Shown one piece after another: positions 51,797 to 52,270 of a stretch of DNA of 64,000 nt. How positions within the stretch are numbered: position 1 is the stretch's first letter; each line of letters opens with the position of its first letter. This DNA is from a virus. The DNA lies in IMG/VR virus record IMGVR_UViG_3300032893_000006, positions 70,338 to 134,337 of that record. The stretch is one strand, 5' to 3'. Under the pieces are notes generated by a model. It saw nothing but the letters and a program-made list of their open reading frames with translations. It ran no database searches and was not told where the DNA came from. A program made the position numbers and the translations under genes.

Positions 51797-51902
51797 CCGC
51801 TGACAGTGTTGCTTACATGGGTGGGTAACCACCATTTCACTGCTAATGAAAATCCGGCGCGAGCCGGGTGTACCCGAAAGGGTTGCAGCGCGACTACAGC
51901 GG
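51797..51902 (+). ncRNA. Y-RNA-like element 1
   Basis: CCGCTG/CAGCGG ends; TGAC..TACATG and CGACTACA motifs; arm TTTCA-CTGCTAA-TGAAA. Confidence 0.75.
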
Positions 51903-51917
51903 AGAGATTTTGAGTAT

Positions 51918-51992
51918 GGCTTGACTGTTTCGCATACATGTTGCTCTTGACAAGCGAACACGCCGAAAGGCAATGCGGAACGACTACAAGCC
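51918..51992 (+). ncRNA. Y-RNA-like element 2
   Basis: GGCTTG/CAAGCC ends; shared motifs; arm TTGCT-CTTGACA-AGCGA. Confidence 0.75.
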
Positions 51993-52001
51993 AGTAAGTT
52001 T

Positions 52002-52136
52002 GGGCTGACTGAGTTGCTTACATGTCCTTTGGAGACCGAGGTCGGAGGTTCGAATCCTTCATCGTCCACCAACAATGAGTAGACGGGCGATTAGCTCAGC
52101 GGTAGAGCGCGTAAACAAGCAGATCGACTACAGCCC
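52002..52136 (+). ncRNA. YrlA-type Y RNA (element 3; permuted tRNA domain)
   Basis: GGGCTG/CAGCCC ends; T arm precedes D arm; acceptor ATCGTCC/GGGCGAT closed by a linker. Confidence 0.85.
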
Positions 52137-52150
52137 AAAGATTTTGAGTT

Positions 52151-52270
52151 TGACCTGACAGAAGTGCATACATGTAGCTCATTGGTAGAGCATCTGATTT
52201 GTAATCAGACGGTAGTTGGTTCAAATCCAACCTCGTACCTCGCAAGAGGTTGCACTTCGACTACAGGTCA
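52151..52270 (+). ncRNA. Y-RNA-like element 4 enclosing D, anticodon (TGT) and T arms
   Basis: TGACCTG/CAGGTCA ends; TCTGA-TTTGTAA-TCAGA; no proper acceptor stem. Confidence 0.8.

Follow-up and report, generated by a model that had tools for sequence, protein, structure and literature searches.

Locus organization

We analyzed a window of 64,000 nt from IMG/VR record IMGVR_UViG_3300032893_000006 (positions 70,338–134,337), that is, the 3′ half of a 134-kb virus record derived from an uncultured phage. An array of six tandem small-RNA elements on the + strand (51796–52549) lies upstream of a gene for a Ro60-like protein and is followed in the 3′ direction by the gene for an HNH protein, the 501-aa Ro60-like gene itself, a gene for a 132-aa protein and a terminator-like hairpin, which probably marks the end of the transcription unit (Table 1). 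No sigma70-like promoter was found within 51300–55900. Apart from the array, the window contains 39 tRNA genes, all with an encoded CCA end and together spanning 40968–59196, as well as a permuted tmRNA gene. Searches of the phage genome for RtcB, an Rnl2-type ligase and a CCA-adding enzyme found none of the three; in a search for T4 Rnl1, the control itself matched nothing anywhere.

Table 1. Features of the RNA array, the downstream genes and related tRNA-like cores in other loci (positions refer to the window unless a locus number, L, is given; CM, covariance model)
Feature	Position	Strand	Basis or description
Element 1	51796–51904	+	MFE layout, z = −5.7; CM R1, 79.8 bits; covariation
Element 2, short form	51917–51993	+	Handle and small apical part; fold z = −4.3
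Element 3, YrlA-type permuted tRNA mimic	52001–52138	+	CM R2, 164 bits; 28 homologues with covariation
Element 4	52151–52270	+	Rfam tRNA, 57.6 bits; ARAGORN tRNA-Thr(UGU); CM R1, 118 bits
Element 5, permuted relative	52280–52406	+	Read from sequence; fold z = −4.0; homologous copies in L001, L002
Element 6	52415–52549	+	Handle motifs; orthologues in L001, L002, L005, L006, L008
HNH-domain protein, 188 aa	52555–53121	+	Pfam HNH_5 and HNH; between RNA array and Ro60-like gene
Ro60-like protein, 501 aa	53147–54652	+	Helical-repeat ring and vWA domain
132-aa protein	54652–55050	+	Start overlaps Ro60 stop codon
Terminator-like hairpin with T run	55075–55098	+	
Nested tRNA cores with full acceptor	L010:2409–2537; L021:1623–1751; L023:3190–3317; L062:3130–3255; L008:2185–2311; L020:1305–1429		

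The Ro60-like protein and its neighbors

The 501-aa protein was assigned by its predicted fold. At the sequence level, Pfam detected the vWA domain only, the TROVE family (PF05731) matched neither this protein nor any other part of the genome, and sequence and profile searches against the PDB came back empty; the protein did match phrog_850, annotated as 'RNA-binding protein'. An AlphaFold (AF2) model built on 38 homologues had a pLDDT of 79, and a Foldseek comparison of this model with the PDB returned Ro60/Rsr/TROVE entries at all ranks from 1 to 12, aligned over the full length (about 500–545 columns) with TM scores of 0.53–0.61; the top matches had E-values of 1e-9 to 1e-7. Ro60 of Thermus phage phiLo (9kop, 9l5y) was among the best structural matches. 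Given these full-length fold matches to Ro60 structures, we take the modeled protein to be a divergent Ro60. A tblastn search against deposited phages recovered two weak relatives, and a metagenome scan with the single protein as query recovered two short loci; the protein family as a whole comprises 919 matches, many of them on contigs of 100–140 kb.

The two flanking genes are also conserved. In 54 of 64 loci, the 132-aa gene directly follows the Ro60-like gene, and it is likely to encode a fixed partner of the Ro60-like protein; no family was found for its product, and an ESM Atlas look-up was empty. The HNH protein is kept at full length (46–70% identity) beside or inside the RNA arrays of about 26 related loci, a conservation that exceeds the expectation for a roaming homing endonuclease. 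Its N-terminal approximately 100 residues matched no family, again with an empty ESM Atlas look-up. Both proteins are candidate members of the Ro60 particle.

A shared handle links the elements across related phages

The array elements have in common a terminal handle with the 5′ strand UGACWG-N-WUACAUG and the 3′ strand CGACUACA. Its motif CGACTACA occurs seven times in the window, with six copies in the array, against 1.06 expected. As in Y RNAs, the two ends of each RNA base-pair to form a long stem, in which an outer helix and a second helix flank a conserved internal loop (ACWG/CGACUA). The published Ro60-contact motifs, namely GGUCCGA of vertebrates, GNCGAAN0-1G of YrlA and CGAA of the phiLo Yrl RNAs, are absent as such from the handle, which shows a partial likeness at most (CGAC versus CGAA) and on the opposite strand.

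To follow the array across phages, we fetched 62 viral and six MAG-binned loci. Arrays were found upstream of the Ro60-like gene in nearly all of them, and the synteny of array and gene recurs in about 55 related contigs, with Ro60 identities of 38–79%. Among deposited phage genomes, nucleotide similarity to the array was limited to generic tRNA-Thr-like matches to element 4. A regular-expression detector for the handle proved too noisy across loci and was replaced by two covariance models. The first, R1, was seeded with a MAFFT alignment of ten elements of the element 1/element 4 type from six phages; RNAalifold, run unguided on this seed, returned the two handle helices, an arm with a 5-bp stem and a 7-nt loop, and the T arm. 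R1 identified 49 full-length elements at E ≤ 1e-11 across nearly all loci, and in a whole-genome search its strong matches were confined to the array. The second model, R2, was built on the structure of element 3 and identified 28 elements at E ≤ 1e-14. In both element classes, the handle helices are 88–95% paired (91–95% in the R1 set), with double changes at nearly every pair; as the alignments had been fitted to the models, these and all other pair counts given below lean towards the modeled structure, although for the R1 class RNAalifold on a MAFFT alignment agreed.

The recurring synteny and the predicted Ro60 fold of the neighboring gene product support the view that the elements are Y-RNA-like RNAs belonging with the Ro60 protein, as the first-pass annotation had supposed.

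Elements 1 and 4 probably carry the handle in place of an acceptor stem

That annotation had also described 7-nt anticodon-like loops in elements 1–4, and all four loops are present in the sequence. They did not fare equally as anticodon arms: the arms of elements 1, 3 and 4 are conserved and covary over the 49 and 28 homologous elements, whereas that of element 2 is not conserved. Likewise, the ends of the elements bear out its description of missing or internal acceptor ends; we found no acceptor in elements 1 and 2, an incomplete one without CCA in element 4 and a closed one with an internal ACCA in element 3.

Element 1 consists of the handle, a hairpin in the D position, an anticodon-type arm, a hairpin capped by GCGA in the T position and an extra hairpin. 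The anticodon-type arm, UUUCA-CUGCUAA-UGAAA (51835–51851), is reproduced by the single-sequence MFE. The element has neither an acceptor stem nor a T loop, and an Rfam scan of the array that admitted E-values up to 10 did not match it to the tRNA family. In element 4, the handle surrounds a near-perfect tRNA core, again followed by an extra hairpin. The core comprises a D arm (52177–52192), an anticodon arm (52193–52209; UCUGA-UUUGUAA-UCAGA) and a T arm (52215–52231), and scored 57.6 bits against the tRNA family RF00005 (gathering score 29), with all mismatches confined to the acceptor stem. This stem forms four of seven pairs and ends without CCA, falling short of the seven pairs plus NCCA of a tRNA.

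Pairing in the anticodon-type helix reaches 99.2% among the 49 R1 homologues, each of its five pairs shows double changes, and neither any of 500 shuffles nor any slid register came close to this value. The loop measures 7 nt in 44 of the 49; these loops carry U33 (38/44), a purine at position 37 (43/44), A38 (40/44) and a pyrimidine or A at position 32, and display 18 different triplets.

In distant relatives, the element 4-type core within the handle has an A/U-rich acceptor stem of all seven pairs, followed by NCCA (Table 1), and several of these cores carry the unusual triplets AAU, UCA (opal-reading) or UUA (ochre-reading). Judging from this sequence arrangement, the full acceptor and NCCA inside the handle suggest that element 4-type RNAs descend from a nested tRNA gene.

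Such cores also bear on the idea that the elements are tRNA precursors, in which the handle is a leader–trailer helix and a tRNA, possibly an odd or suppressor tRNA, is later excised for translation. The complete acceptors plus NCCA inside the handle in L010, L021, L023 and L062 and the occasional UCA and UUA triplets fit this idea, as does the processing of Mycobacterium smegmatis YrlA, which is cut by RNase P and given CCA in vivo (PMC4201824). In the window and its close relatives, however, the acceptor is degenerate (at most four of seven pairs) and lacks CCA, although the real tRNAs of these phages (the window and L001–L064) encode CCA in 284 of 311 cases; element 1 lacks both acceptor stem and T loop, and every triplet in the window is already served by a normal phage tRNA. 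The precursor reading thus stays alive for the distant relatives and not for the window, and as an account of the array we rate it very improbable.

Element 3 is a permuted tRNA mimic with an anticodon loop

In element 3, a distal anticodon hairpin, GUC-CUUUGGA-GAC (52024–52036; nt 29–31 paired with 39–41), is followed by a T arm (52044–52060), a closed 7-bp acceptor hairpin (52061–52091) and a D arm (52094–52108). The order of T arm, closed acceptor hairpin and D arm was found in element 3 and its 28 homologues and not in elements 1, 2 and 4. The anticodon stem had previously been read as a short one of 3 bp. This hairpin is indeed there, and two further pairs (52037–52038 with 52110–52111; nt 42–43 with 27–28) extend it into a composite 5-bp stem, with the handle branching off between nt 28 and 29. 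The module amounts to a complete cloverleaf with G26, a 5-bp anticodon stem, a 7-nt loop and an AGGUC variable loop. Its acceptor hairpin contains G3:U70 and the internal ACCA at 52068–52071.

The single-sequence MFE of element 3 favors another local pairing. Across the 28 homologues, the anticodon hairpin is 98.7% paired and all three of its pairs covary, pair 42:28 shows 12 double changes, and the orthologue in L001 exchanges C-G for A-U at a proximal pair. The loops are 7 nt long in 25 of 28 members, with U33 in 23 and a purine at position 37 in all 25 of these. Compared with the Rfam YrlA family (RF02553), element 3 scored 30.0 bits, below the gathering score of 69 and matching only the model's tRNA-like core (positions 23–87); the copy in L007 reached 32.9 bits over positions 1–114.

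Taken over both classes, the conserved arms carry U33 in 86–92% and a purine at position 37 in 98–100% of cases. This conservation also speaks to a third possibility, decaying tRNA gene copies, according to which the elements are pseudogenes left by duplication within the tRNA island and the loops are functionless remnants. The setting would suit it, with the elements sitting in a 40-gene tRNA island threaded with homing-endonuclease genes. Yet all helices have stayed paired through compensatory changes, among phages with Ro60 identities of only 38–79%, and loop length, U33/R37 and the position beside Ro60 are all retained, leaving this possibility with next to no weight.

Several observations concern the acceptor hairpins. 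The closed hairpins of element 3 and element 6 (52460–52510) both show G3:U70 followed by ACCA; among the 28 element 3-type homologues, NCCA occurs in eight and G3:U70 in four. G3:U70 followed by ACCA is the alanine identity set used by tmRNA. The phage's own permuted, two-piece tmRNA gene (45557–45972; tag peptide AEDNALPMAA) has a T-arm/acceptor/CCA layout that resembles that of element 3. If RNase P cuts at these hairpins in elements 3 and 6, the product could be an RNA in two pieces that has a chargeable end.

Elements 2, 5 and 6

The apical part of element 2 is made up of the hairpin UUGCU-CUUGACA-AGCGA (51941–51957), with C at position 37, and a GAAA-capped hairpin; the former does fold in the window sequence. 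We considered this element as an anticodon-arm mimic and rejected it on account of the C at position 37 and of its orthologues, in which the handle is kept, the 5-bp/7-nt hairpin is not and the UUGA string alone recurs. The hairpin may be a chance feature or a different motif, and element 2 probably stands outside the anticodon-arm series. Short handle-bearing elements with differing apical parts were found in many loci.

Element 5 appears as a circular permutation, with a terminal acceptor-like stem (GCCGGGU/ACCCGGC) and a T arm; its handle is closed into an internal hairpin (52309–52351; CGACUACAGCAGCAAUGCUGAC...UACAUG), and the copy in L002 ends in ACCA. In element 6, the handle surrounds a G+C-rich module, whose acceptor-like hairpin ends in ...CCUCC-ACCA.

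The loops change their triplets and keep a tRNA grammar

Orthologous elements present different triplets on the same stem. The element 1 stem UUUCA/UGAAA carries GCU, UUG, UGA, UGA, CUG and ACG among orthologues, and the element 4 stem UCUGA/UCAGA carries UGU, CUU, UUA, CGU, AGU and ACG. In pairs of elements that are 70–80% identical outside the loop, positions 34–36 differ at 0.57 per site, compared with 0.24–0.31 elsewhere. Other peripheral hairpins of the same elements vary equally fast, so that the loop is not special in this respect; the fast change of the triplet shows freedom to vary rather than positive selection.

The change is nevertheless constrained. Positions 36 and 37 are coupled, with G36 followed by G37 in 22 of 23 loops and U36 followed by A37 in 23 of 24 (Fisher's test with each distinct loop counted once, 6e-9; within the two element classes, 2e-4 and 7e-5). 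The real tRNAs of these phages follow the same rule in 56 of 84 (G36-G37) and 89 of 97 (U36-A37) cases, and G36-G37 and U36-A37 are the contexts of m1G37 (TrmD) and t6A37, respectively. Since the loops obey the coupling of real tRNAs, they are not drifting freely: they keep the grammar of a real anticodon loop while the triplet turns over. As far as sequence comparison can tell, this supports the view that the loops are real anticodon-arm mimics, selected for shape and for the 36–37 'extended anticodon' coupling. The first-pass annotation had let its reading hinge on whether the loops are conserved among homologues; the identity of the triplet is not, whereas the arm and the loop grammar are. 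A turnover of triplets on a conserved arm with conserved grammar fits either a free triplet or an arms race.

We also compared the loops with those of real tRNAs. Within the window, the loops of elements 3 and 4 are identical to those of the phage's own tRNA-Gln(UUG) and tRNA-Thr(UGU) at seven of seven positions, and those of elements 1 and 2 agree with tRNA-Ser(GCU) and tRNA-Ser(UGA) at six of seven; the loop CUCUUAA of element 4 orthologues equals that of tRNA-Lys(CUU) exactly. Over the whole family, 15 of the 44 loops are identical to the loop of a real phage tRNA; shuffling of all columns gives an expectation of 9.2 (P = 0.012), and shuffling with fixed triplets one of 11.9 (P = 0.13). Eight of the 44 triplets (AAU, UCA or AAA) match no real tRNA in the set. 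In view of this weak loop-identity test and the unmatched triplets, we do not claim a family-wide mimicry of specific tRNAs. U34 occurs in 64% of the loops and in 41% of the phages' real tRNAs (P = 0.001, relatedness ignored). As the anticodon stems of the elements are A+U-rich (40% G+C versus 66% in real tRNAs), composition may explain this excess. Among the real tRNAs of these phages, 13% carry C33 instead of U33, for example the tRNA-Cys, tRNA-Tyr and tRNA-Ile of the window.

These data bear on the function proposed in the first-pass annotation, namely that the loops are decoys or baits. Spelled out further, each would imitate the anticodon loop of a particular tRNA and soak up, or report, host anticodon nucleases or enzymes that modify the anticodon loop. 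The RNA would perhaps be held on Ro60, which could pass a cut RNA to a nuclease, and the turnover of triplets would reflect an arms race with host defenses. The 36–37 coupling shared with real tRNAs, the identical stems with different triplets among orthologues, the high rate at positions 34–36, the surplus of U34 and the exact tRNA-Lys(CUU) loop all speak for such a scheme. So does the setting of tRNA conflict, seen in the 39 tRNAs with encoded CCA and the C33 variants throughout the family (compare PMC10264068). Against it, the loop identity to real tRNAs loses significance once the triplet is fixed, some triplets have no real tRNA counterpart in the set, other peripheral hairpins are as variable as the loop, and the A+U-rich stems could account for the U bias. 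In addition, the genome lacks RtcB and an Rnl2-type ligase, which weakens the analogy drawn earlier to the Salmonella rsr-yrl-rtcB operon and leaves the parallel partial. On balance, we regard the decoy function as plausible though improbable, while giving it clearly more credit than either tRNA precursors or decaying gene copies.

A proposed Y-RNA-like family with grafted tRNA modules

Our preferred reading, to which we assign a probability of roughly three in four, is that the array forms a Y-RNA-like family for the divergent Ro60 of this phage: a single handle is joined, at points that differ between elements, to tRNA-derived modules with a preserved, authentic anticodon arm. By analogy with other Y RNAs, the handle formed by the 5′ and 3′ ends would be the docking site for the Ro60 ring, and the remainder of each RNA would be a tRNA-derived module. 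Elements 1 and 4 would have the handle where a tRNA has its acceptor stem and would retain the D, anticodon and T arms; element 3 would contain a module permuted as in YrlA but, unlike YrlA, with the distal anticodon stem-loop still in place; element 2 would be a short form with no convincing tRNA part. On this grafted-module reading, the handle may hold Ro60 together with the conserved 132-aa partner and often the HNH protein, and the module could offer the shape of an entire tRNA, with its anticodon arm, to tRNA-reading proteins of host or phage, which would then be tethered to the Ro60 particle or occupied by it. From the conserved shape and the 36–37 grammar, we argue that some partner reads the anticodon end of the elements.

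In its most specific form, the decoy function would make the array a phage-borne library of anticodon-loop baits on a Ro60 particle, drawing off or sensing nucleases or modifying enzymes, with triplets re-tuned as the tRNA-targeting defenses of the host change. We put this forward as an unlikely but tangible option; if true, it would give Ro60/Y RNPs a direct role in the tRNA conflict between phage and host.

Comparison with known Y RNAs and phage tRNAs

In published systems, the tRNA-like domain of Y RNAs serves to attach effectors to Ro60 (PMC4201824; bioRxiv 10.1101/312249), and the Ro60 protein of Thermus phage phiLo binds both host PNPase and the two Yrl RNAs encoded upstream of its gene (PMC12135203). 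The locus described here resembles YrlA-type systems (RF02553; Chen et al. 2014, PMC4201824; Wang et al. 2018, bioRxiv 10.1101/312249) in the adjoining Ro60 orthologue, the long end stem, the permuted tRNA mimic seen in element 3 and the presence of more than one Y RNA per locus. It differs in the sequence of the handle, which has no 5′ GNCGAAN0-1G, in a YrlA score of 30 bits against a cut-off of 69, in having six tandem elements and several attachment points, and in a protein too divergent for Pfam TROVE. Moreover, YrlA of Salmonella Typhimurium has no anticodon loop according to the paper on its crystal structure (bioRxiv 10.1101/312249), whereas element 3 has a 7-nt loop on a composite 5-bp stem, which makes this a real difference between the two.

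Elements 1 and 4 have the same topology as the model of Deinococcus radiodurans Yrn1 by Chen et al. (PMC4201824), in which a stem replaces the acceptor and a possible 5-bp 'anticodon arm' stands between D-like and T-like arms. Yrn1, however, has a 6-nt loop and a doubtful D arm, in contrast to the canonical 7-nt loop with U33 and R37 found here and to the 57.6 bits of element 4 as a tRNA. The phiLo locus likewise places Y-like RNAs (Yrl1 and Yrl2) directly upstream of a phage Ro60; it holds two RNAs, which were identified by a bulge CGAA motif, and the word 'anticodon' does not occur in that paper (PMC12135203). With the tRNA-carrying phages discussed in the context of defense (PMC10264068; PMC11555353), our phage shares a near-complete tRNA set and anticodon-loop variants among its real tRNAs, the C33 variants recalling those published. 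Phage tRNAs have been proposed to evade anticodon nucleases (van den Berg et al. 2023, PMC10264068). The phage tRNAs of these studies are chargeable and replace cleaved host tRNAs, whereas the present elements are unchargeable as they stand and, we infer, linked to Ro60.

Ro60 with tRNA-mimic Y RNAs is a known kind of system; our literature search found no description of Y RNAs with canonical anticodon arms or of decoy RNAs for anticodon nucleases. In the published view, it is the elbow of bacterial Y RNAs, formed by the D and T arms, that matters, and the anticodon loop is absent. This large family of uncultured phages, by comparison, keeps whole anticodon arms on its predicted Ro60 partner RNAs and varies only the triplet. 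The conserved arms point to partners that read the anticodon end, be they nucleases, modifying enzymes or synthetases, for which the loops offer a ready natural variant set. The three ways in which one Ro60 handle is grafted onto a tRNA also bear on the origin of Y RNAs from tRNAs.

Finally, close relatives of the locus (L065, L066, L069 and L070) were binned in Acidobacteriota MAGs (Acidobacteriaceae, Acidiferrales), one of them as a 131-kb contig. This possibly indicates the host phylum, or phage contigs that were binned together with their host.
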